A DNA stretch of 64,000 nt. It comes from Alphaproteobacteria bacterium. GTDB lineage: Bacteria > Pseudomonadota > Alphaproteobacteria > CAAHEQ01 > UBA3637. A program made the translations under genes and the position numbers. Numbering within the stretch: position 1 is the first letter of the stretch; each line of letters opens with the position of its first letter. The DNA lies in contig SUUS01000004.1 in NCBI GenBank assembly GCA_015062395.1, forward strand, positions 18,943 through 82,942. The letters run 5' to 3'. Below the pieces are notes generated by a model. That model saw only the letters and a program-made list of their open reading frames with translations. It was not told the DNA's origin and did no database searches. This document shows positions 2 to 22,243 of this stretch, piece after piece.

Positions 2-472
2 ATTTCTCAAGGTGAGGCAACTACAAATCTTGCGCGTTATGATGGTGTTCGTTATGGTGTTCGAGAAGAAGGTAAAACTTTAGATGAAATGTATATGAAT
101 ACACGTATGGCAGGTTTTGGACAAGAGGTTCGTAATCGCATGATTTTAGGAACATTCTTTACATCGGCAAAGGGCTATCATGATTATTTTGTTCCTGCGC
201 AAAAAATGCGTTCATTGATTAAGCAAGACTTTGATAAAGCTTTTGAAAAAGTGGATGTATTGTTCTCTCCTGCAGTTCCAATTAAGCCTTTTACTATCGA
301 GGAAGCTAAAAATGGAGCAGCAAAAGGACGCTTTAATGATAACTATTTGATGCCATCTTGTTTAACGGGAGTTCCTGCTGGTTGTGCGAATAATGGTTTA
401 CAAGTCATTGGTCGTATGTGGGATGATGCAACGGTTTTGAAAGTATTAGATGTAGTGGAGATGATGAAATGA
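2..472 (+). CDS. gatA: Glutamyl-tRNA(Gln) amidotransferase subunit A, C-terminal part (5' end outside window)
   Basis: In-frame translation from nt 2 reads [53 protein letters not shown].., a GatA C-terminus. The stop TGA overlaps the gatB start (ATGA). Confidence 0.85.
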
Positions 473-1935
473 CATATATTGTAAAAGGAAAAACAGCCGA
501 TTGGGAGCTGATTTGTGGTCTAGAGGTCCACTGTGAAATTATTTCAAACGCTAAGGTTTTTTCAGGGGCTAGTGCAGAATTTGGAGGACTTCCCAATACA
601 CACGTTGCATTTTTGGACTGTGGTATGCCAGGTCAATTGCCTGTTCTAAATGAAAAGTGTATCGAGCAATGTATCAAAACAGGTTTTGGCTTAAACGCTC
701 AAATTAATAAACATTCTGTATTTGATAGAAAGAATTACTTTTATGGAGACTTGCCAACAGGTTATCAAATTACGCAATTGTTTTACCCAATCGTTGGCGA
801 AGGTTATTTGGATGTGACAGACGAAGATGGTCAAATCAAAAGAATCGGTATTGAACGTTTGCATCTAGAGCAAGATGCTGGTAAGTCTATCCACGATATG
901 CATCCAACGCAGTCTTATTTGGATTTTAACCGTGCTGGTGTTGGTTTGATGGAAATTGTATCTAAGCCAGATATTCGTTCTCCTGAACAAGCAGGTGATT
1001 ACTTACGTAAATTAAGAGCTTTGGTTCGTTATTTAGGGACTTGTGATGGAAATATGGATGAAGGCTCTATGCGTTGCGATATCAATGTTTCTGTTCGTAA
1101 GGTCGGTGAAGAAGGTTATCGTCACCGTGTTGAAATTAAGAACGTTAACTCGATTAAATTTGTGATGCAAGCGATTGATTTGGAAGTTCATCGTCAGATT
1201 GATTTATACGAAGCAGGGCAAGATTTCCCTCAAGAAACACGTTTATTTGATGCGGTTAATATGGAAACGCGTTCTATGCGTTCAAAGGAAAATGCTTTGG
1301 ATTATCGTTATTTCCCAGATCCAGATTTACCTCCAGTCAATTTGACGCAAGATTATATTGATAATATTCGTGAAAATTTGTCCGAATTGCCAGAAGCAAA
1401 GAAAAAACGCTATATGGAAAGTTTGGGGCTGCCTGAATATGATGCGCGTATTTTGACTTCTGATAAAGAAACAGCAATTTATTTTGAACGTGCTTTACAA
1501 GGTGCAAGCCGAGATCCGAAAAAAGTTGCAAACTGGGTTATGGGAGATTTGTTTGCAAAATTAAATGCCGAATACATTGCTATTGAAAACAGTCCAGTTC
1601 GTCCGGAAGATTTGGGAGCATTGATTGATTTAATTAATGATGGCACAATTTCTGGAAAAATAGCAAAAGATGTTTTCGAAGAAATGTTTACAAGTGGAAA
1701 ATCTGCAGCTGCAATTGTGGAAGAAAAGGGCTTGAAGCAAGTTTCTGATACAGGCGCGATAGAAGCGATGATCGCGGAAGTTTTATCTGCCAATATGGAT
1801 AAAGTCGCGGAAATTAAAGCTGGTAAAGATAAATTAAAAGGTTGGTTCGTCGGTCAGATTATGAAAGCTTCACAAGGAAAAGTAAATCCTGGGTTGGCAA
1901 ATCAATTATTGGATAAAAAGTTAAGCGAAATGTAA
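469..1935 (+). CDS. gatB: Asp/Glu-tRNA amidotransferase subunit B
   Basis: 488 aa. GatB-typical motifs are present (ELICGLEVH.., [18 protein letters not shown]-terminal GatB/YqeY-like tail). Start overlaps the gatA stop. Confidence 0.9.
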
Positions 1936-12137: not shown

Positions 12138-12819
12138 ATTGATGAGAACAAAGCTTTTACTCGGTGACGAAGGCGTCGCTAAGTTGCAACGTGCAAGGGT
12201 AATGGTCGTTGGATGTGGCGCTGTTGGTTCTTACGCTATAGAGGCTTTGGCAAGAGCAGGAATCGGACATTTGAAATTAGTCGATTTTGATGCCGTTTCT
12301 GTTAGCAATATAAATCGTCAGTTGTTTGCATTGTCTTCAACGGTCGGTAAGAAAAAAATTGACGTGGCAAAAGAAAGAATAAAGGATATATCTTCTGATA
12401 TTTTGGTTGATACTGTTGATGCGTTCTTGGATGAAAAAAATGTGGATAAAATTTTAGAAGATGTTGATTATGTTATCGATGCTATTGATAGCAGAGATTC
12501 TAAAATTGCGTTATATAGAACATGTTTGCAAAAACAAATACCATTTATTTCATCAATGGGCGCGGCATTAAGATTAGATGAAACAAAAATAAAAATTGCA
12601 ACGTTAAAGAAGACATCTGTGTGTCCGTTGGCAGGGATTTTGCGTCAGACGTGTAAGAAAGAAGGTATATCAATGGATTTTCCTGTCGTTTATTCAACTG
12701 AAACACCTATCAAAGCCAGTAATGGTCACAGACAGATGGGTTCTTTATCAACAATTCCAGCTATTTTTGGTTTGATGCTTGCTCATTTTATCATTCAAAA
12801 AATTATTAAATTAAAATAA
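12127..12819 (+). CDS. tcdA: tRNA threonylcarbamoyladenosine dehydratase (ThiF/MoeB-like E1 fold)
   Basis: VMVVGCGAVGSYAIEALARAGIGHLKLVDFDAVSVSNINRQ.. matches TcdA/CsdL. Overlaps the tatD stop. Confidence 0.75.
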   Translation: METRLMRTKLLLGDEGVAKLQRARVMVVGCGAVGSYAIEALARAGIGHLKLVDFDAVSVSNINRQLFALSSTVGKKKIDVAKERIKDISSDILVDTVDAFLDEKNVDKILEDVDYVIDAIDSRDSKIALYRTCLQKQIPFISSMGAALRLDETKIKIATLKKTSVCPLAGILRQTCKKEGISMDFPVVYSTETPIKASNGHRQMGSLSTIPAIFGLMLAHFIIQKIIKLK

Positions 12820-12887
12820 AGCTTAATCCTTGACAAGTTTTAAAATCTGTTTATACTCCTTTTTATAAGAACAAAAAAGGAACGAAT

Positions 12888-15164
12888 ATGACAAATCCAT
12901 TTGATTTTGATGACTTTCAGGAAACCGATTTTGCCGAAGTAAAAACAGTTAAAGAACCAGACTATCTGAAAGGGTTAAATCCAGAACAATATGAAGCCGT
13001 CACAACAACCGAAGGACCTTTGTTGGTTTTATCTGGTGCAGGAACAGGAAAAACAAGGGTATTAACGACGCGTTTGGCTTATATTATAGATCGGCGTTTA
13101 GCAATGCCTTGGCAATGTTTAGCTGTCACATTTACGAATAAAGCATCTAAAGAAATGTCAGAACGTTTGGAAAAAATGATTGGAGCAGATGCTCTTTCTG
13201 TGTGGTTGGGAACGTTCCATAAACTGGGTTTAAGGATGTTGCGACAGCATTATGACATTGTTGATTTACAAAAAGATTTTGTTATTTTGGGGACCGATGA
13301 CAGCGAACGTATTTGCAAACAGTTGATGCAAGCAGATGGTGTTGATATCAAACAATGGACTCCTGCAGGATTAAACGCTGTTATTCAACGTTGGAAGGAC
13401 AGGGGATTATCGCCTTCATCAGTAAGTACAAAAGAAAATAGCTCTTTTTTAAATGGGGGTGCGTTGTCTTATTATCACCGTTATCAAGCCAGATTAAAAG
13501 AATTAAATGCTGTTGATTTTGGTGATTTATTGCTTTTACCTTTGGAAATTTTTAAAATCAGACCAGATATTGCAGCGAAATATCAAAAACAGTTTAAGTA
13601 TATTTTGGTCGATGAGTATCAAGATACAAATGTTGCACAGTATTTATGGTTGCGTTTATTAGCTCAAGGAAGTGGTAATTTATGTTGTGTCGGGGATGAC
13701 GATCAATCTATCTATTCTTGGCGTGGCGCAGAAGTTGAAAATATCTTGCGTTTTCCAAAAGACTTTCCAACAGCTAAAACGATTCGTTTGGAACGCAATT
13801 ATCGTTCTACGACTCATATTTTAGGCGCAGCATCAGCCTTGATTGCAAATAATGAAACTAGATTGGGAAAAACACTTTATGTTGCTCCAGAACGAGATGG
13901 ATCTGGTGATAGGGTTCAGATTAAAGGATATTATAGTGGTTCTGAAGAAGCTGAACGGGTTATTGATACGGTGGAAAATTTAATGCGAACAACACCATTA
14001 TCACAAATGGCTGTTTTGGTTCGGGCAGGTTTTCAAACAAGAGCATTTGAAGAATCTTTGATTAAGGCAGGTATTCCTTACCAAGTTATTGGGGACTTTA
14101 AGTTTTATGAGCGTGAGGAAATTAAAGATGCTGTTGCGTATTTACGCCTGTTGGCTAATCCATCCGATGATTTAGCTTTTATGCGAATTGTAAATAAACC
14201 ACGCAGAGGGTTGGGGGATGCGACTTTACAAAAATTATCGGACACAGCAAGACAAAAGCAAATACCTTTATTAGAGGCTATTGATTGGGCAGAATTGAAG
14301 CCTGCAGTTCGTTCAACATTGACAGAGTTTAAAAAGAATATCATTCGTTGGCGTAGTCGTTTAGAAAATGGCGAGGAACTGTCTGAAGTGACTGAAAAGC
14401 TGTTGGAAGAAAGTGGATATTATACAATGTGGAGAATGGATAAATCTGCAGAGGCGCCTGGTCGTTTAGAAAACTTAAAAGAATTAATTAATGTGATGAG
14501 TGGTGAATTCCAAGATTTAAATATGTTTATCGAACATGCCAGTTTGGTTATGGATACAGAAAATCAAGTTGAGCAGGAATTATTTACAGTGATGACACTA
14601 CATGCATCAAAAGGGTTAGAATTTGATGTTGTTTTCTTACCTGGATGGGAAGAAGAATTATTTCCTCATGCCAAATCAATGGGGGAAGGCGCATTGGCAT
14701 TAGAGGAAGAACGCAGATTGGCTTATGTCGGATTGACCAGAGCCAGAAAAAAAGCTTATATTTCTTTTGCTGCAAATCGCAGAGTTTATGGTAAGTGGCA
14801 AAATGCACAACCTTCTCGATTTATCGATGAACTGCCCGATGAACATATTGAAATGGTTTCTACATTTAATTCGCGTTATTTTGATTACACACCTAAATTT
14901 TCAACTAAACCGAGTTATCAAAAATGGGAAGAAAATGAAGATGAAAATTTAAATGCTTCTTTTTACCAATGGGGAAAAACTTCAGGAAGCATTTATCACG
15001 ATGATGAAAGTGTTGTAAAACGTTCATCGCAAAAAGGTAAGCGTGTTTACCATGAAAAATTTGGTTTCGGCACTGTATGGGGGCAAGATGGTGAAAAACT
15101 GGATATAGCCTTCGACAAACATGGTCGAAAAAAAATTATGGCGCGCTTTGTTTCTGAAACTTAA
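12888..15164 (+). CDS. uvrD: UvrD/Rep/PcrA-family SF1 DNA helicase
   Basis: 758 aa. Motifs GAGTGKTRVLTTRLAYII, VDEYQDTN, TLHASKGLEFDVVFLPG..VGLTRARK. UvrD-type C-terminal tail. Confidence 0.85.
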   Translation: MTNPFDFDDFQETDFAEVKTVKEPDYLKGLNPEQYEAVTTTEGPLLVLSGAGTGKTRVLTTRLAYIIDRRLAMPWQCLAVTFTNKASKEMSERLEKMIGADALSVWLGTFHKLGLRMLRQHYDIVDLQKDFVILGTDDSERICKQLMQADGVDIKQWTPAGLNAVIQRWKDRGLSPSSVSTKENSSFLNGGALSYYHRYQARLKELNAVDFGDLLLLPLEIFKIRPDIAAKYQKQFKYILVDEYQDTNVAQYLWLRLLAQGSGNLCCVGDDDQSIYSWRGAEVENILRFPKDFPTAKTIRLERNYRSTTHILGAASALIANNETRLGKTLYVAPERDGSGDRVQIKGYYSGSEEAERVIDTVENLMRTTPLSQMAVLVRAGFQTRAFEESLIKAGIPYQVIGDFKFYEREEIKDAVAYLRLLANPSDDLAFMRIVNKPRRGLGDATLQKLSDTARQKQIPLLEAIDWAELKPAVRSTLTEFKKNIIRWRSRLENGEELSEVTEKLLEESGYYTMWRMDKSAEAPGRLENLKELINVMSGEFQDLNMFIEHASLVMDTENQVEQELFTVMTLHASKGLEFDVVFLPGWEEELFPHAKSMGEGALALEEERRLAYVGLTRARKKAYISFAANRRVYGKWQNAQPSRFIDELPDEHIEMVSTFNSRYFDYTPKFSTKPSYQKWEENEDENLNASFYQWGKTSGSIYHDDESVVKRSSQKGKRVYHEKFGFGTVWGQDGEKLDIAFDKHGRKKIMARFVSET

Positions 15165-15181
15165 AAAAAAGGAGAAATATT

Positions 15182-15784
15182 ATGAAAAAAATTTTAATTA
15201 ATTTTTTTGTTGTCTTTTTGATTATTATTGCTTTTATGATACCATATTGTATGCGTACGTTAAATCGTGCAACGGTATTAGATGAAAATGCAATTGCTAA
15301 ATGGTCACAAGTCGAAAATAATTATGAACGTCGTTATGATTTAATACCTAATTTGGTCGCAACAGTTAAAGGATATGCATCTCATGAAGAAAAGGTGTTA
15401 ATTGATGTGACAGAAAAAAGAACTTCTATTGGGCAAATTAAATTATCTGCTGATGATTTAAATAATCCAGAAAAAATGGAAGCGTTTAGAAAGGCTCAAA
15501 GTGAATTATCTGGCACATTATCTCGTTTGATGGCCGTTGCTGAAAATTATCCAGATTTGAAAGCTAATGAAAATTTCTTATCGCTACAATCTCAATTGGA
15601 GGGAACTGAAAATAGAATAGCTGTTGCTCGTAAAGATTATATTGAAGCTGTTCGTGAGTATAACCAATTTTTAGGAATGATTCCTCAAAAGTGGATTTTA
15701 TCGATGTTTGGTGATTTTGAAAAAAAATCAGAATATAAAATTGATGAAGCAAAAAAATCCGTTCCAGAAGTGAAGTTTGACTAA
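15182..15784 (+). CDS. lemA: LemA family protein
   Basis: 200 aa with an N-terminal TM. Sequence ..WSQVENNYERRYDLIPNLVATVKGYASHE.. is LemA-typical. Confidence 0.85.
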   Translation: MKKILINFFVVFLIIIAFMIPYCMRTLNRATVLDENAIAKWSQVENNYERRYDLIPNLVATVKGYASHEEKVLIDVTEKRTSIGQIKLSADDLNNPEKMEAFRKAQSELSGTLSRLMAVAENYPDLKANENFLSLQSQLEGTENRIAVARKDYIEAVREYNQFLGMIPQKWILSMFGDFEKKSEYKIDEAKKSVPEVKFD

Positions 15785-15786
15785 TA

Positions 15787-16443
15787 ATGAAACTGAAACG
15801 TTTTTTATTGATTTTATTTTTCTGTTTGTTCGGAATGTCCGTCTACGCGATGGACTTTCCGACATTAACAGGACAGGTAGTTGACGAGGCGGGTATTATC
15901 AATACTAAAACAGAAGAAGAAATTTTATCAATGTTGCGTGAAGGGCAGCAGTTTGTTGTTGTCACATTGAAGGATTTAAGAGGTTATGAAATTGAAGAAT
16001 ACGGGGTGGAATTGGCTCGTCATTGGAAGATTGGAACAAAAGAACATGATGATGGGGTTTTGTTAATTGTTGCTCCAAATGAAAGGCAAGTACGTATCGA
16101 AGTTGGATATGGTTTAGAGGGGGTTTTAACAGATGCCAAGAGTTCAGAAATTATCCGTCATATTTTATTACCTGCGTTTAAAGTGGGGAATTATAATGAT
16201 GGAATTGTTAGGGCTGTTGATGCGATTAATCGAATTATTGCTGGAGAGCAAGTCGATGTTGAAACAGGCGAGTTGAGTTTTTTTGAAGTCATCTTTATGA
16301 TATTCTTTTTTTTGTTCGTTTTGTTTGCAAATCTAACGCCCTCTCATTCAGATGGTTCAGGCGGCGGTGGAGGCTCTCACAGAAGTTCATTTCGTGGTGG
16401 AGGAGGTTCTTTTGGCGGTGGAGGCGCTTCTGGTAGATGGTAA
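15787..16443 (+). CDS. TPM-domain (YgcG-like) protein with a C-terminal TM helix and a Gly-rich FGGGGASGRW tail
   Basis: Signal peptide, a TPM-domain core (..VVTLKDLRGYEIEEYGVELARHWKIGTKEHDDGVLLIVAPNERQVRIEVGYGLEG..), a TM helix, then GGGGGSHRSSFRGGGGSFGGGGASGRW*. Confidence 0.8.
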   Translation: MKLKRFLLILFFCLFGMSVYAMDFPTLTGQVVDEAGIINTKTEEEILSMLREGQQFVVVTLKDLRGYEIEEYGVELARHWKIGTKEHDDGVLLIVAPNERQVRIEVGYGLEGVLTDAKSSEIIRHILLPAFKVGNYNDGIVRAVDAINRIIAGEQVDVETGELSFFEVIFMIFFFLFVLFANLTPSHSDGSGGGGGSHRSSFRGGGGSFGGGGASGRW

Positions 16444-17135
16444 TGCAAGAAACTCTATCTTTACGTGAAAAAATAAAAAAGTATAAAAAAGAAAATAGAA
16501 CTTATTTTTTGGCTCAAGAAAAAACTACAAAAAAGTTAGAGCAAGAACTTTTAAAAAAAGGGAATTATACTCGTTTGTGGTGGAACAGAACAAGTTATTT
16601 TCTGCCACAACAAAAATCATCAGAGGTGGATGATTTTTTATCCGACTTGGGTGGACGGAATTGTGATGCTTTTTCTGTTTCTAGCTTATCTAAAAGAGAT
16701 ATTTGGGTTCTTTTTATATATTATTTAATTTGTATCGGAATTCGAATTTATAGCCAATGGGGTTTGTTACATGATCTTTATTCTGTTGAAAATTCTATAG
16801 GTATTTTATTGTATCGTGTGTCGTTTGAAGCATTGCTTGTTTTGATTTGTTTTTTATTTTTAGGCTTCTTTTTGTTTGCAGTTGTTTTTATTCTATTTTG
16901 TTTTTTTGATGTTATTTTGATATTCGTTTACTTAATTTCCTCTAATAAAAAAAGGCAATATTTAGATGAAAAGTTTTCAGATGAAAATTGTGGTGTCGTT
17001 GTTATGAAAATTTGGTGTTGGATATTTAAATTTATTTTATCTGTTTTGTCATTTTCATATCTTGGTAAACTTTTTTCTTCTTTTAAGGGAGCCAGTGGTT
17101 CTTTTGGTGGAGGAGGCGCTTCTGGTAGATGGTAG
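16437..17135 (+). CDS. Polytopic membrane protein sharing the FGGGGASGRW C-terminal tail (no TPM domain)
   Basis: 232 aa. The ATG lies inside the agATGGta of the previous gene's tail codons. Ends ..GASGSFGGGGASGRW*. Confidence 0.6.
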   Translation: MVMQETLSLREKIKKYKKENRTYFLAQEKTTKKLEQELLKKGNYTRLWWNRTSYFLPQQKSSEVDDFLSDLGGRNCDAFSVSSLSKRDIWVLFIYYLICIGIRIYSQWGLLHDLYSVENSIGILLYRVSFEALLVLICFLFLGFFLFAVVFILFCFFDVILIFVYLISSNKKRQYLDEKFSDENCGVVVMKIWCWIFKFILSVLSFSYLGKLFSSFKGASGSFGGGGASGRW

Positions 17136-17908
17136 ATTTTTTTTGCTTTTTTTTACTTTTTGCTTTAGTCCTTTTTTTATCGTTTAGAAAACAGCATTTT
17201 ACTGTACGTGAAAATATAAAAAGGATATATGGGTCGGATGACGCAAATTTCATCCGTTATCCAAGGCGTTCTTCATCCGTTTTTCAGACAATTTTAAGTA
17301 TTTTTTCTGCTGTTTTAGTTCTTTTTATGTTTTGTTTTTTCTTTTGGTGGCTTATATTTCCATTGGATGCAGTTATTGAGAATAATATTGATAAACTGAT
17401 GCCAATATTTTTGACTATATTCTTTTTCATCTCTTTTCTTGAAACAATAATTTTATATAAGGAAAACGAAGATTTTCAACGGATTATAAAAAAGCTTCTT
17501 TTGTTTTTTTTAATTTATTTTTTGCCGTCGATTTTAATTTGTTTTTTTTCATATTGTTATTATAAAGAAAATATCTTGGATATGGGGATATTCCTTTTCT
17601 TTGTTTTTTCTTTTTTTCTTTGTTTGGCTGTTAATATATCAATATGTGTCAGTGCTTTTTTGGGCATTGTTTTTATTTATGGAATCGGGTATTTTTTTAT
17701 TGTTTTTTATAGCCTTCTTACAGGAAAAAGGATAAATGCGATTAAATGTCCGGCTTTTTCTCATCGTTTTTTTCACAATTTTTGGATGGTTTGTTTTTGG
17801 ATGATGACGTTTTATTACGTATATTGGTTTTTCGGAAAGTTATTAGGGGTATTTCAATCGGGAAAAGGAAATTTCGGTGGGGGAGGCGCTTCTGGTAGAT
17901 GGAAATAA
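17129..17908 (+). CDS. Polytopic membrane protein sharing the FGGGGASGRW(K) C-terminal tail
   Basis: 259 aa with ~6 TM helices. The ATG is embedded in the previous gene's tail. Ends ..GKGNFGGGGASGRWK*. Confidence 0.6.
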   Translation: MVDFFCFFLLFALVLFLSFRKQHFTVRENIKRIYGSDDANFIRYPRRSSSVFQTILSIFSAVLVLFMFCFFFWWLIFPLDAVIENNIDKLMPIFLTIFFFISFLETIILYKENEDFQRIIKKLLLFFLIYFLPSILICFFSYCYYKENILDMGIFLFFVFSFFLCLAVNISICVSAFLGIVFIYGIGYFFIVFYSLLTGKRINAIKCPAFSHRFFHNFWMVCFWMMTFYYVYWFFGKLLGVFQSGKGNFGGGGASGRWK

Positions 17909-17910
17909 AA

Positions 17911-17935
17911 AAGGCAGATTAATCTGCCTTTTTAA
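17911..17935. terminator. Bidirectional rho-independent terminator
   Basis: Hairpin aaggcagatt/aatctgcctt with A/T runs on both sides, between convergent stops at 17908 and 17953. Confidence 0.6.
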
Positions 17936-17952
17936 ATTTATAGAAATAGATG

Positions 17953-18927
17953 CTATTCTTTTTGATGTTCTTGTTCAATCGTTGAGCGTTCGTTTTGATG
18001 ACAAATTGTTCTAGGTTTTATTTCTGTTTCTCCTCGAAAAAATGCAACTACACGCAAATCACGAACATAAGGATGCGATAAATTTTCCCAATACGTATAT
18101 TTTGTTGGCAAAGTTGGTTGTGTTTTTATTTGTTGAATTTCTTCGTTTGTAAAACCTTCTGCTTTTAACAATTCATCACCGTATTTCCAAGTGCGTGCTA
18201 ATATGATATCAGCCCAAAAACGAAGTCCTTCAAAACGGAGATGAGGTAATGATAGATCTCCTCTGCTTATTTTCCTTGTATCAATTGATAAGTCTGCAAT
18301 GTCATCTGCGTATTCAATTGCCGAGGTAGTAATAATGCCATCTTTTTCTTTTAATCCTTCTAAAATTCGGCCATAAAGATGCAGTTTTTTAATTCGACTA
18401 GAACTGTCTTTTGAAAACTCAAAGGGAACAAAATCTGTAAACGGTGCATTTTTATTTTGATCAATCAATTCGTCCCACAATGGTCGATTTGTAATTGTTA
18501 GTTTTTGATATTTTTCATCAGCAGTATTTTTAATCGTTTCTTGATGAAATGCTTCTCCGTTTAAAAAGGCTTTTTTTGTTTCGGCTAATTCTGTTATTTT
18601 TTGTAAAGCATCTTTTAACTTTGTTTCAGGAGTTATTTCATAGATTAAAGAGTTATCCAAAACCAATATATTTTTTTTACTTCTTTTTGACTTTCGGATA
18701 AATCTTTGCGTCCTTTTTTGAATGTCTTCGAATCGTCCGATTAATCCAACTTCATAGATAAAACCGTTATATCGAGAGGAAGTGTAAAAAGCTTTTGGTA
18801 ATTCACAAGCGCCAACCAAAGCCAGAGAACCATTAACGATAAATGTTTTTCCATTTTGAAAGGTATTAATTAATTCTTCTATCCGTTTTTGCTGATTGGG
18901 ATTTAAACTTTTGGCTTTTTTTTGCAT
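17953..18927 (-). CDS. Hypothetical protein (orphan; possible PD-(D/E)xK-like or GIY-YIG-like nuclease features, very uncertain)
   Basis: 324 aa. No recognised family. Possible VLD..ETK and FIYEVGLIGRF motifs. Isolated between two terminators/promoter regions. Confidence 0.55.
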   Translation of the reverse strand: MQKKAKSLNPNQQKRIEELINTFQNGKTFIVNGSLALVGACELPKAFYTSSRYNGFIYEVGLIGRFEDIQKRTQRFIRKSKRSKKNILVLDNSLIYEITPETKLKDALQKITELAETKKAFLNGEAFHQETIKNTADEKYQKLTITNRPLWDELIDQNKNAPFTDFVPFEFSKDSSSRIKKLHLYGRILEGLKEKDGIITTSAIEYADDIADLSIDTRKISRGDLSLPHLRFEGLRFWADIILARTWKYGDELLKAEGFTNEEIQQIKTQPTLPTKYTYWENLSHPYVRDLRVVAFFRGETEIKPRTICHQNERSTIEQEHQKE

Positions 18928-19068: not shown

Positions 19069-20310
19069 ATGGCTAATTGGGTTTCAAAAGTTGGTTTTAG
19101 ATATTTAAAATCACGTAAGAAAACGGGGTTTGTTTCTGTTATTGCAGGCTTTTCTTTTCTAGGGATTATGCTGGGTGTTGCTACATTAATTATTGTTATG
19201 AGTGTCATGAATGGTTTTAGAGCAGAATTAATGGAGCGAATTTTGGGGTTTAACGGGCATTTATCTGTTCAATCTACGTGGGGGCCTGTTTTAAATGAAG
19301 ATGAGAATTTAATTAAAAAATTAGAAAATACATACGGAATTGTTTCTGTCGCTTCATTGTTGGAAGGACAGGTGATGGTTTCAACAAATATGCATTCTCA
19401 AGGAGCTTTGATTCGGGGATTGAAACCAGCTGATTTTAAAAAACGACCATTATTGTTTGATAATTTTTTGGGAAGTTGGGATGAATTTGAAAATGAACAA
19501 GGTATCATATTAGGCGCCAGATTAGCTTCAAAAATGGGCGTTCGTATTGGTGATAAAATAACTCTGATTTCACCCAATGGAAACAGTACTGCATTTGGAA
19601 CAATGCCCAGAACAAAAGCGTATCGTATTGCAGGGACATTTGATTCAGGTATGTATGAATATGATTCGAATATGGTTTTTATGCCTCTTTCAATGGCGCA
19701 AAAGTTTTTGATGCAAGAAGGAAAAATATCACAAATAGATTTGTTTGTCTCCAATATGGATGATTTAGCTTTTATTATGCAAGATGTGATGGATGTTTTG
19801 CCATTAAATGTTTCAGTCGTCGATTGGCGTAAATCAAATGCCGCCTTTTTTAACGCAGTCGAAGTTGAACGCAATGTAATGTTTTTAATTTTGACGTTAA
19901 TTATCATCGTAGCAGCATTTAACATCATATCTGGATTGATTATGTTGGTTAAAGATAAAACAAAAGATATCGCTATTTTAAGGACTATGGGCGCCAGTCG
20001 AAAAGGAATAATGACTGTCTTTTTAATCGATGGTTGTTTTGTTGGTTTTGTTGGTTCTTTTTTGGGGTTGATTTTGGGGTTGTCAATCAGTTTAAACATC
20101 GAAAAAATTCGTCAATGGCTTGGTTCTTTAGCTGGAAGAGATTTATTTTCTGCTGAAATTTATTTTTTAAGTCAGTTGCCTAGTAAAACTTACGCATCTG
20201 ATGTTTTTTTGGTTATTGGATTGGCCTTGGGATTGTCTTTTTTGGCAACATTGTATCCGTCGTGGAAAGCAAGCAAAACAGATCCTGTGGAGGCTTTAAG
20301 ATATGAATAA
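19069..20310 (+). CDS. lolE: Lipoprotein-releasing system permease (LolC/E, FtsX-like)
   Basis: 413 aa. Four TM helices with a large periplasmic loop. FtsX/MacB-type C-terminus ..ILRTMGAS...SWKASKTDPVEALRYE. Confidence 0.75.
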   Translation: MANWVSKVGFRYLKSRKKTGFVSVIAGFSFLGIMLGVATLIIVMSVMNGFRAELMERILGFNGHLSVQSTWGPVLNEDENLIKKLENTYGIVSVASLLEGQVMVSTNMHSQGALIRGLKPADFKKRPLLFDNFLGSWDEFENEQGIILGARLASKMGVRIGDKITLISPNGNSTAFGTMPRTKAYRIAGTFDSGMYEYDSNMVFMPLSMAQKFLMQEGKISQIDLFVSNMDDLAFIMQDVMDVLPLNVSVVDWRKSNAAFFNAVEVERNVMFLILTLIIIVAAFNIISGLIMLVKDKTKDIAILRTMGASRKGIMTVFLIDGCFVGFVGSFLGLILGLSISLNIEKIRQWLGSLAGRDLFSAEIYFLSQLPSKTYASDVFLVIGLALGLSFLATLYPSWKASKTDPVEALRYE

Positions 20311-20920
20311 AAAAAACACAAGCAAAAATAAACGTTATCATACGTCGTTTGTTGAAGCTGATGAACGTACATTAGAAAAGCTTTTTGGTACAAAATCACA
20401 AAAGAATGAAACACAAGAACCAAACGAACAGGAAGATGAGTTTGGCAAAAAAGAAGAAACAAAAGCAGAATTGCGACAGACCATCAAAATACTGTTGACG
20501 ATGTTGCGCTGGGCGATTTTTATTTGTATTTTCGGTCTTAATTTGGCGCTTTCTATCAGTCTTGCAGCTAATTCAGATTTGTCATCAAAGACTGGTGTTA
20601 TTTTTGTTGTTTTATCAGTCCTTTCTTTGTATTTTGCATGGTTTACAGTCAAAATAAAGAAAAAAAATGAATTTCAAAAAAAATTGAAAAACAGAATGCT
20701 TGTCACGTTGTTGTTTAGTTTGGGAACTTGCTCATATAAATGGGTTTTTTATATGTTATTAATGATGGCATTTAATTTTTTTGCTATTTTAGGTTATGCG
20801 TTTTTCTTCAATAATTTTAAGATAAAAAGAAGTGCTAAAAAGGAAGAACTGCAACGGATAATCGAGGTGTTGATAGTTGTTTTTGTTTTGTTAGTGTTTG
20901 TTTTTTCTGCTAAAAATTAG
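20303..20920 (+). CDS. Hypothetical membrane protein inserted between lolE and lolD
   Basis: 205 aa. Acidic N-terminus (..QEPNEQEDEFGKKEETKAELRQ..) followed by ~4 TM helices. Overlaps the lolE stop by 8 nt. Confidence 0.5.
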   Translation: MNKKNTSKNKRYHTSFVEADERTLEKLFGTKSQKNETQEPNEQEDEFGKKEETKAELRQTIKILLTMLRWAIFICIFGLNLALSISLAANSDLSSKTGVIFVVLSVLSLYFAWFTVKIKKKNEFQKKLKNRMLVTLLFSLGTCSYKWVFYMLLMMAFNFFAILGYAFFFNNFKIKRSAKKEELQRIIEVLIVVFVLLVFVFSAKN

Positions 20921-20940: not shown

Positions 20941-21621
20941 ATGAAAGATGTGGTTTTAGAGTTAAAAGATATTAAGCGTTGGTTTGGCAACGGTGAAAAG
21001 AAATTAGAAGTTCTAAAAGGTGTTAATTTAAAAATCAACAAAGGCGAAATTGTCGCTTTAGAAGGACCTAGTGGTAGTGGTAAGTCAACATTGCTTTACG
21101 TGACAGGATTGTTGGATAAGCCCAGTTCGGGAGAGCTTTATTTAGCTGGTCAATCTTGTGCTAAAATGAAAGAGCAGGAACGGACGCAAGCAAGACGTAA
21201 GTATTTAGGCTTTGTATATCAATCGCATTTGTTGTTGCCAGATTTTACATGTTTAGAAAATGTGATGATGCCATTGTTGATTAGTGGAGTTCACAAAAAA
21301 GACGCATCTTTAAAGGCTGCAGAGTTATTGGAAAAAATGGGTTTAAAACACAGGTTGAAGCATCGACCAGGAGAAATGTCGGGGGGAGAACAACAACGTG
21401 CCGCTGTTGCCAGAGCTTTGGTTCATTCTCCAGCTTTGCTGTTGGCTGATGAACCAACAGGGAATTTGGACCCTAGTACAAGTGAAAAGGTTTTTGCTGA
21501 ACTTTTGTCTATTGTCAGAGAAACAGGCTTATCTGCATTAATTGCAACACATAATCCAGCTTTGGCTGCTAAAATGGACAGACGCCTTCGGATAGAAAAT
21601 GGTGGTGTGTTGGAGGTTTAA
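20941..21621 (+). CDS. lolD: Lipoprotein-releasing system ATP-binding protein
   Basis: Walker A GPSGSGKST, signature LSGGEQQRAAVARAL, Walker B LLLADEPTGNLD. Confidence 0.85.
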   Translation: MKDVVLELKDIKRWFGNGEKKLEVLKGVNLKINKGEIVALEGPSGSGKSTLLYVTGLLDKPSSGELYLAGQSCAKMKEQERTQARRKYLGFVYQSHLLLPDFTCLENVMMPLLISGVHKKDASLKAAELLEKMGLKHRLKHRPGEMSGGEQQRAAVARALVHSPALLLADEPTGNLDPSTSEKVFAELLSIVRETGLSALIATHNPALAAKMDRRLRIENGGVLEV

Positions 21622-21622
21622 T

Positions 21623-22243
21623 ATGAAGCAAGATAACCGATTGGAACATGATAACCTGTTAAGTGTTTTTTTGGATAATGTAAAAAAAAGTATTCTTTTT
21701 ATCATAAAAAACAAAGTTATTTTAAAAAGGATAATTTCTTTTGTTTTTTCTGTTTTTGTATCTTTGTTTGAGATATGTTTAATCTTTGGTTTATTCTTTA
21801 TACTTCGAAATGGAAGTTCTCTTTTTCAAAAAATTTTACATCATCCTTATATATTTGATTTTTTTAAACTTCAAGAAATCATTTATCTTTCTTTTTTAGA
21901 TTATAAGCCAATATGGATTTATTTTATTGTCGCACTGATTGTTTTTGTTATTGTAAATTCAATCTATCGCTTTTATAAAAGTAAAAATTGGGAAAATTGG
22001 ATTTTAACCGTTTTAAATGTTAGTACTTGTCTGCTTTTTTGTTTACTTATGTTTTTCCATTTTTTTAATTTACCGAGTGCGTTAATGCTTAAAGAAGGAA
22101 AAGTAATCCCTTTATGTTATGAATTGTCTGCTCTTCATTTTGAAAAAGAAATTTGTTCTTTATGTCCACAGAGAGAGTTCGTTTTTAATAGATGTGTTTT
22201 AAGTAAAGGGCTTTCGTTTCCGTCGTCTATTTTGAAAAAATAA
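21623..22243 (+). CDS. Hypothetical polytopic membrane protein downstream of lolD
   Basis: The start was moved to MKQDNRL.. because GGAGG lies 6 nt upstream, 1 nt after the lolD stop. ~5 TM helices. Confidence 0.5.
   Translation: MKQDNRLEHDNLLSVFLDNVKKSILFIIKNKVILKRIISFVFSVFVSLFEICLIFGLFFILRNGSSLFQKILHHPYIFDFFKLQEIIYLSFLDYKPIWIYFIVALIVFVIVNSIYRFYKSKNWENWILTVLNVSTCLLFCLLMFFHFFNLPSALMLKEGKVIPLCYELSALHFEKEICSLCPQREFVFNRCVLSKGLSFPSSILKK

Follow-up and report, generated by a model that had tools for sequence, protein, structure and literature searches.

The stretch of DNA analysed here (the window; 64,000 nucleotides of contig SUUS01000004.1, assembly GCA_015062395.1, Alphaproteobacteria bacterium) contains an envelope operon, lemA-TPM1 (YgcG-type), from a Gram-negative lineage that is AT-rich and uncultured. 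The genes for LemA and for a TPM-domain protein (TPM1) are followed by two genes for polytopic membrane proteins (gene 2 and gene 3), which end in the same glycine-rich tail as TPM1. What is new here is a clade-restricted family without a TPM domain, called X in the following, which possesses the YgcG tail and is probably tandemly duplicated in this genome. Sequence comparison indicates that genes 2 and 3 both descend from one X gene, which in relatives already had the tail as well as a start codon inside the tail of the preceding gene. The account as a whole, in which X of a lemA-TPM1 operon would have been duplicated via the tail repeats, the tails homogenised and X made an accessory to LemA and TPM, is considered moderately probable. 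The features concerned are given below in nucleotide (nt) positions of the window, with protein lengths in amino acids (aa).

15182-15784, plus strand: lemA, the first cistron, 200 aa, with an N-terminal transmembrane (TM) helix and the LemA helical domain (Pfam PF04011, 5.7e-56)
15787-16443, plus strand: TPM1 (YgcG-type), 218 aa, with a signal peptide, a TPM domain, one TM helix and the Gly-rich tail GGGGSFGGGGASGRW
16405-16443, plus strand: tail copy 1, encoding GSFGGGGASGRW and the stop; GGAGG at 16420-16424, ATG of gene 2 at 16437-16439, stop codon TAA of TPM1 at 16441-16443
16437-17135, plus strand: gene 2, 232 aa, about 4 predicted membrane helices, 0 Pfam matches, C-terminus ASGSFGGGGASGRW
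17097-17135, plus strand: tail copy 2; GGAGG at 17112-17116, ATG of gene 3 at 17129-17131, stop codon TAG of gene 2 at 17133-17135
17129-17908, plus strand: gene 3, 259 aa, about 6-7 helices, 19 % Phe, 0 above-threshold Pfam matches, C-terminus GNFGGGGASGRWK
17867-17908, plus strand: tail copy 3; the last 21 nt before the end of the W codon equal copies 1 and 2; no gene after it
17908-17933, plus strand: hairpin terminator AAAAAGGCAGA-TTAA-TCTGCCTTTTT at the end of the operon, facing the convergent gene 17953-18927

Relatives of TPM1 form a graded series of 91, 81, 76, 74, 67, 61, 60 and 50 % identity on syntenic contigs (uvrD-lemA-TPM-...-lolC). Assemblies of relatives in this clade include GCA_964369135.1, GCA_965340915.1 and GCA_965320695.1. 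A single X gene after TPM exists in four relatives, namely L088/L089, L091, L101 (protein P0124) and L098, in which the contig stops before X does. In each of the four this gene, encoding a polytopic protein of 175-191 aa, starts at the ATG of the TPM tail (AGA-TGG-TAR) with an overlap of 7 nt, and the product ends with FGGGGASGRW in 3/3 complete cases. As used here the X family comprises gene 3 of the window, P0123 (X_L088), P0124 (X_L101) and L098:4212-4802, which have a conserved 4-helix core in common. The motif FHxxWxxCFWxxTFYYVYWxxGK of this core shows no variation within the family, between lineages whose TPM proteins are only 61-81 % identical.

When the tails are removed, residues 112-237 of gene 3 align with residues 48-173 of X_L088 (40 % identity, BLASTP E=3e-23), and gene 3 also matches X_L098 (28 % identity, E=1e-5), and it is the ortholog of the X membrane core. 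No match was found for the first 110 residues of gene 3. Residues 1-36 of gene 2 match the N-terminus of X_L088 (43 % identity, BLASTP E=5e-7), the 5' DNA also aligns, and the last helix of gene 2 is weakly similar to X_L098 (E=0.066). An earlier reading made without database searches (the sequence-only reading) had called the two genes unrelated; with the N-terminus of X on gene 2 and the core of X on gene 3, at the E-values given, this description has to be abandoned.

An exhaustive phmmer search with gene 3 in 1.84 billion representative proteins returned three clusters only, P0002 (gene 3 itself), P0123 and P0124 (1.6e-17 and 1.5e-14 for the two others), which makes X a very small family confined to this clade. 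Searches of 5.8 billion proteins with genes 2 and 3 gave self matches only; X proteins lie below the database-size E-value there and surfaced via synteny and the exhaustive phmmer search. The X alignment and the exact 21-mer of the tail had 0 matches in metagenome contigs, a collection evidently without samples of this organism, and PADLOC and PHROGs gave nothing meaningful for the orphan genes. The absence of a TPM domain from genes 2 and 3, already stated in the sequence-only reading, holds at the level of Pfam (0 matches) and of the six reading frames of 16380-17960, where none was found; a full-length TPM hidden Markov model (HMM) matches only at its positions 180-248, the TM helix plus tail. 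A TPM2 HMM found nothing in the region or the window except a weak match to TPM1. Two other identities of X were tried and rejected: a TPM2 protein, including a degenerate one (hhalign against 23 TPM2 sequences, probability 0.9 %), and a split-off membrane part of TPM1 (X HMM against 120 TPM proteins, best E=0.002, hydrophobic segments only).

X is absent from L094, L095, L103, L099 and L100, and a search for remnants in the X-less L094, L095, L099 and L103 gave tail matches only. In L092:4082-4747 the gene is frameshifted, one T being lost in a T8 run relative to L091; the loss may reflect an error of sequencing, or the run may act as an on/off switch prone to slippage. Between lineages whose TPM proteins are 74-81 % identical to that of the window, X proteins reach 35-40 % identity. 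X is most aptly regarded as a membrane protein that is young, evolves rapidly and can be dispensed with.

The tail is a repeat also at the DNA level. The 21-mer GGAGGCGCTTCTGGTAGATGG is present in exactly three copies, at 16420, 17112 and 17882, with 0 matches in 100 dinucleotide-preserving shuffles. The common tail of three consecutive open reading frames (ORFs), noticed in the sequence-only reading, is thereby confirmed; the identity of copies 1 and 2, put at 37/39 there, is actually 36/38 over ggttcttttgg..atggta. Besides TPM1, gene 2 and gene 3 no further ORFs with a Gly-rich tail exist within the 64-kb window. The ATG of both gene 2 and gene 3 is the AGA-TGG junction of the preceding tail, and GGAGG precedes each ATG by 12 nt, again as had been read from the letters (16437 and 17129). 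Relative to the usual 5-10 nt of the other genes of the window this spacing is at the long edge. For gene 2 an alternative start at 16443 (TAATG, 1-nt overlap) is chosen by some gene callers (P0001, 230 aa; L087). The ATG embedded in tail copy 3 opens a 7-codon ORF only.

Genes 2 and 3 would be translated via termination-reinitiation at the overlapped ATG, and the GGAGG contained in the Gly codons GGA-GGC may assist initiation despite the suboptimal 12-nt spacing. As in known stop/start-overlap coupling (ATGA, TAATG; termination-reinitiation), there is an overlap of 7 nt (or 1 nt) and a Shine-Dalgarno (SD)-like GGAGG inside the upstream coding sequence. Unlike the usual case, the site of coupling belongs to a coding module that is itself repeated, so that a further copy of the module brings a further start site with it; the SD spacing is also longer.

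In the ancestral state a single X gene would have had a nearly identical direct repeat on either side, with the TPM1 tail before it and its own tail at its end. Unequal homologous recombination between these repeats would then have led to a tandem duplication of X, followed by complementary divergence in which gene 2 kept the N-terminus of X and gene 3 the core. Such a duplication predicts that each copy begins and ends in the tail, as is seen in the window, and that the total length doubles; genes 2 and 3 together have 491 aa, roughly double the 175 to about 230 aa of X. The middle tail has the look of a mosaic, with a pre-tail region like that of X and gene 3 and a proximal GGTTCTTTTGG like that of TPM: upstream, copy 2 is nearer to copy 3 (14/30 vs 7-8/30), and in the GSF segment it is nearer to copy 1 (13/15 vs 10/15). 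Furthermore, the N-terminal FTVRENIKRIY of gene 3 is a faint copy of the LS(L/V)RE(K/N)IK motif (BLASTP E=0.023), and the DNA at 16459-16479 is repeated at 17202-17222 with 19/21 matches, a T-rich insertion of 51 nt having shifted the second occurrence. Ahead of its tail gene 2 has the X-like ..SFSYLGKLF.., and 12 residues separate GK from FGGGG, just as in gene 3. In other systems, too, unequal crossing-over between short repeats yields a tandem duplicate with a repeat at either end.

Within each genome the tail copies agree in their codons. In the window all three copies read GGA GGC GCT TCT GGT AGA; in L101 two copies read GGA GGT GCT TCA GGC AGA, and in L088 two copies have .. TCC GGC AGA. 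TCC makes up only 12 % of the Ser codons of L088, and codon usage therefore does not account for its appearance in both copies. At synonymous sites the copies of one genome are 71 % identical, against 37 % for orthologs and 33 % for the remaining pairs from different genomes (permutation p=0.008; 7 tail copies, 3 genomes and 9 synonymous sites, a small sample), and the signal of concerted evolution suspected in the sequence-only reading is thus present. Gene conversion over about 21 nt would keep the copies identical within each genome, and this appears to be the simplest account of the tail identity. Compared with established concerted-evolution systems, the identical tract is only 21-23 nt long and the support is statistical and comes from few genomes. 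A tract of 21-23 nt is near the lower limit for RecA-dependent exchange.

Instead of gene conversion a dual-coding constraint might fix the tail nucleotides, through the joint demand for the peptide and for SD and ATG. GGAGG and ATG do lie inside copies 1 and 2, and in the X-bearing members of the clade GGAG(G) still precedes the ATG by 10-12 nt, where the X-less L095 has GGC GGT GGC. However, window copy 3 and the X tails of L088 and L101 share the codons of their own genome although no gene follows the last copy, so that selection on SD and ATG cannot explain the identity; in addition, the spacer Ser and Gly codons covary though they are outside SD and ATG, and L094 keeps GGAGG..ATG without having X. 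We regard this constraint as an unlikely substitute. The cassette for coding and initiation proposed in the sequence-only reading stands insofar as the tail DNA holds the next start; as a cause of the identity it is not sufficient, since copy 3 is identical without a next gene. For the two-gene state itself, fission of one X by an insert of about 900 nt carrying the tail cassette would place the N-terminus of X on gene 2 only and its core on gene 3 only, as is found, and would agree with the lack of matches for the body of gene 2 and the first 110 residues of gene 3. It is at odds with a total of 491 aa, about twice the length of X, with the X-like ..SFSYLGKLF.. and the shared 12-residue GK-FGGGG spacing of gene 2, and with the VRENIKRIY and the 19/21 DNA match to the 5' end of gene 2 that gene 3 keeps. 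The inserted piece would itself need an X origin and fission therefore amounts to duplication; on its own terms it seems distinctly improbable. Short near-identical repeats can mislead assemblers, and the sequence-only reading had named an assembly duplication, or a single frameshifted TPM-family gene, as what might undo it. The six identical assemblies described below and the homologous X in relatives speak against the former; against the latter, the TPM signal in any frame is limited to the TM helix and tail, with 0 TPM domains in six frames, and every ORF ends with a tail in frame and a stop codon of its own. The chance of either is negligible.

At least six metagenome assemblies made independently of each other (three JGI, two ENA, one Logan) agree in every base of the operon, and the arrangement is therefore not an assembly artefact. 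All four ORFs are co-directional and lie as the sequence-only reading had placed them (lemA, the TPM gene and the membrane ORFs of 232 and 259 aa); the cistrons of TPM1 and gene 2 and of gene 2 and gene 3 overlap by 7 nt each (16437-16443 and 17129-17135). One transcript would cover the operon and end at the hairpin 17908-17933, whose RNA fold has -14 kcal/mol (z=-4.83) and was equalled in stability by 0/200 shuffles. A similar hairpin exists 3' of X in L088/L091. Upstream of 17908-17933, terminator-like hairpins with a T-run amount to only two weak consensus matches, within chance expectation.

The first two products are ordinary members of their families. LemA matches PF04011 with 188.9 bits (cut-off 26.2) and PDB 2etd 'lemA protein' with 7.9e-38, its TM residues are 1-28 according to hydropathy, and an AGGAG is located 7 nt upstream of its ATG; the match to NCBIfam MamQ (2.9e-23) is under the family cut-off. 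It is a typical representative of the LemA/MamQ family (PF04011; PDB 2ETD) with nothing out of the ordinary. TPM1 matches PF04536 with 3.7e-36 (124.3 bits, cut-off 22.1), has its TM segment at about residues 158-187 (hydropathy) and finds PDB 7tbr (7.9e-25) and 2kw7 (7.3e-23) as matches. Within the YgcG-type TPM proteins (PF04536; solved TPM domains 7TBR, 2KW7, 5ANP/BA41) it is a clear member with the same architecture. Genes 2, 3 and X have only the TM-plus-tail part in common with these proteins; their body is polytopic, Phe-rich and without a TPM domain. With the photosystem II assembly factor Psb32/TLP18.3, a tail-anchored TPM protein, there is agreement in the TPM domain and the C-terminal TM anchor, and the match to the NCBIfam Psb32 profile is weak (8e-09, under cut-off). 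The Gly-rich extension is present in bacterial homologs and absent in Psb32 (bioRxiv 10.1101/2025.05.08.652833).

The FGGGGASGRW end is the ordinary C-terminus of this TPM subfamily and not a local graft. A Gly-rich ..SG[SRGD]W end was found in 113/120 of the closest TPM1 homologs (47 SGSW, 35 SGRW, 25 SGGW), and the TPM gene adjoining lemA commonly ends with ..GGGGSFGGGGASG[GSR]W in 80 lemA loci of many phyla. These loci come from a genome-contig search with LemA, in which the best match was 55 % identical, so that the GTDB representatives do not include this lineage, and served as a cross-phylum sample. In E. coli K-12 YgcG (b2778; L104:5712-6584), which combines a TPM domain with about three TM helices and has no lemA alongside, the C-terminus is GGGGSSGGGGASGRW; its last nine residues, GGGGASGRW, are those of window TPM1. 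The tight linkage of LemA and TPM across phyla and the usual form with TM helix and Gly-rich tail agree with the background given in the sequence-only reading; the tail sequence is the family norm, as the 113/120 homologs and E. coli YgcG show. Tail peptides alone had 0 matches in Pfam.

Several side observations concern the TPM proteins and their tail. In some TPM1 proteins (L103:5001-5939 = P0020; E. coli ygcG) about three additional TM helices separate the TPM domain from the tail, so that a polytopic protein with the tail exists already inside the TPM family (P0020, E. coli YgcG); no sequence similarity to X was detected. In the relative L096:873-3867 (and in L097) a TPM gene with the tail comes immediately after uvrD, lemA being absent from this position, and the contig stops just past the TPM gene. 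The TPM tail of L099:4620-4700 and of L100 is GGGGASGKI (AGA to AAA, TGG to ATA); terminal Trp and embedded ATG are gone, and no X comes after. Weak or precomputed matches of the Gly-rich tail region (L069:1184-3232; P0010, P0071) to Pfam PF25184 (YxzE-like putative bacteriocin) hint at another family with similar Gly-rich ..W ends.

The operon can also be compared with the canonical lemA-TPM1-TPM2 neighbourhood (COG1704/COG1512/COG3762). The first two genes are the same and the third is often translationally coupled to the TPM1 tail, and X occupies the slot that in other phyla usually belongs to TPM2. TPM2 proteins (about 145-270 aa) have a TM hairpin within the TPM fold, end with ..NELPNE.. 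and possess no Gly tail; they show no homology to X, which has the tail. An TCATGGTAA overlap with TPM2 beginning 'MV..' (ATGGTAA, 7 nt) occurs in a metagenome-assembled genome (MAG) of Bacteriovoracaceae (L018) and in Acinetobacter haemolyticus (L025), an TGGTAAATG junction in two Nitrospirales MAGs (L064, L086) and a TGGTAATG junction in L007. Starts in or at the end of the tail are therefore a recurrent feature of this operon type, and a cistron start inside the Gly-rich tail is probably an old one. ATGGTAA overlaps in unrelated phyla show that the overlapped start is nothing unusual in such operons. Almost nothing was found in the literature on lemA-TPM operons.

The tail may be a disordered peptide after the last TM helix, probably cytoplasmic in TPM1 and in X. 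TPM1 has the order signal peptide, periplasmic TPM domain, TM helix and tail, for which reason the tail should be cytoplasmic, and X_L088, with a K/R-rich N-terminus and four hydrophobic helices, would likewise place its tail in the cytoplasm. Since X carries the tail of TPM1, it most likely shares the docking or handling signal of TPM1; it would present this signal to the same partner and thereby act as an accessory membrane subunit of the LemA/TPM system. Such a subunit, in the slot held elsewhere by TPM2, is the most likely role suggested for X by its tail and position, with LemA as a candidate for the partner of the tail. E. coli YgcG and L096 keep the tail where lemA is not a neighbour, which weakens a specific link to LemA somewhat.

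That genes 2 and 3 are real genes is supported by ORF lengths of 175-259 codons vs at most 140 codons in 2000 shuffles, by frame and tail being kept in at least 4 lineages and by a tail that is read in frame in every intact copy. Their composition is peculiar, as genes 2, 3 and X have 26-30 % GC and an AT skew of -0.33 to -0.44 (strong T excess), unlike their neighbours. AlphaFold2 (AF2) predicts helices at 86-115, 120-172 and 182-219 and a disordered tail for gene 2 (predicted local distance difference test, pLDDT, 61.9) and a helical protein of low confidence with a disordered tail for gene 3 (pLDDT 51.9). The few differences of X between strains fall within the mosaic recombination background described below.

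A tail acting as a portable LemA-binding or sorting tag, grafted repeatedly onto unrelated membrane proteins by cassette shuffling, was the proposal of the sequence-only reading. It fits the tail on non-TPM proteins here and the tight linkage of LemA and TPM across phyla. X is, however, the only non-TPM family found with the tail: seven extra tail-bearing ORFs, picked from the 80 lemA loci for odd length or position, were TPM proteins by Pfam in 7/7 cases. Genes 2 and 3 are of shared ancestry, and the tail persists without adjacent lemA (E. coli, L096). Repeated grafting is therefore very unlikely, and shuffling onto different membrane proteins receives no support from the loci checked; the view of the tail as a shared C-terminal module remains valid for its occurrence on proteins without a TPM domain and fails where it supposes separate grafts, there being one X ancestor. 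A more sceptical explanation takes genes 2, 3 and X as non-functional by-products, either decaying duplicates or T-rich ORFs between tails that are translated incidentally. Their orphan status in database searches, the deviating GC content and AT skew, the strain-level differences of gene 3 (6 nonsynonymous vs 1 synonymous), the loss of X in L094 and L099, its frameshift in L092 and the low-confidence AF2 models are all in line with this. On the other side are ORF lengths beyond those of shuffled sequence, a core motif that is invariant where TPM is only 61-81 % identical and the in-frame tail of every intact copy; a gene conversion tract alone would not keep the upstream frame. The probability of by-products appears small. 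Equally doubtful is a bolder proposal, in which the YgcG tail would be a self-propagating module of about 40 nt (docking or handling peptide, stop and re-initiation site) that multiplies tail-tagged membrane cistrons by recombination, X having been born largely de novo from T-rich DNA between tails and recruited to the LemA/TPM system.

Duplication of X via the tail repeats, with homogenised tails and an accessory role, has several points weighing against it as well. The body of gene 2 has no significant similarity to X or gene 3 (X-family HMM -1.2 bits, within the range of 1000 shuffles), so that duplication of the whole gene is argued from ends, length and architecture only. X is missing in some relatives and frameshifted in L092, and hence dispensable. 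The 6 nonsynonymous changes and 1 synonymous change of gene 3 between two strains are too few to decide the ratio of nonsynonymous to synonymous rates (dN/dS) and give no proof of purifying selection. The placement of the tail relative to the membrane is taken from crude hydropathy and the low-confidence AF2 models, and the small sample of the synonymous-site test belongs here too.

The surroundings of the operon vary between strains. Compared with L087 (TPM 91 % identical), the region 12634-16535 of the window is a mosaic in which stretches with 0 differences alternate with stretches of 10-21 differences per 100 nt, which indicates homologous recombination between strains; the 3' end of TPM and the 5' end of gene 2 are in a patch identical between window and L087. 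In otherwise about 99 % identical strains the TM and linker part of TPM before the tail (L088:3200-3600 vs L091) is entirely different (P0009 with 202 aa vs P0012 with 234 aa), and both segments run into the same tail, a local replacement or indel hot spot. The convergent orphan gene 17953-18927 (minus strand, 324 aa) is syntenic across the clade (L088:4209-5168; L091:9313-10272) and had 0 matches in Pfam, NCBIfam, PADLOC and PHROG. Its codon differences are 21 nonsynonymous vs 2 synonymous between L088 and L091 and 3 vs 1 between window and L102, which points to diversifying or very relaxed selection.

Two orphan Phe-rich membrane ORFs are located at 20303-20920 and 21599-22243 (both plus strand) within the lolC-lolD-dnaE stretch, the former with an 8-nt overlap with the end of lolC. 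At these sites L091 has different ORFs (134 and 181 aa) and L088 has none, and the lineage seems prone to gaining small membrane cistrons inside operons. In the X-less L094 (GCA_965340915.1) an RVT_1 reverse-transcriptase gene (350-1615, minus strand) lies about 2.3 kb upstream of lemA, and a 512-aa gene without Pfam match is found between them. The window has no rRNA or other Rfam match and no tRNA; LolCDE, AsmA and an ORF run at 39-57 kb (possibly a cell-wall/division cluster) suggest a Gram-negative organism. DnaX of the relatives L095 and L103 carries DUF3646, a weak hint of Alphaproteobacteria.

The importance of the locus is moderate, as nothing here alters the known biochemistry of the operon. 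LemA and the TPM proteins of the YgcG type are envelope proteins of very wide distribution without an established function, and X is a non-TPM carrier of their tail. It represents a natural experiment in which the tail is perfectly kept while the remainder changes fast, which argues that the tail itself is selected or actively homogenised. X may thus offer a minimal handle for finding the partner of the tail, and the locus would be a compact example of a coding repeat with stop and start that drives tandem duplication inside an operon.

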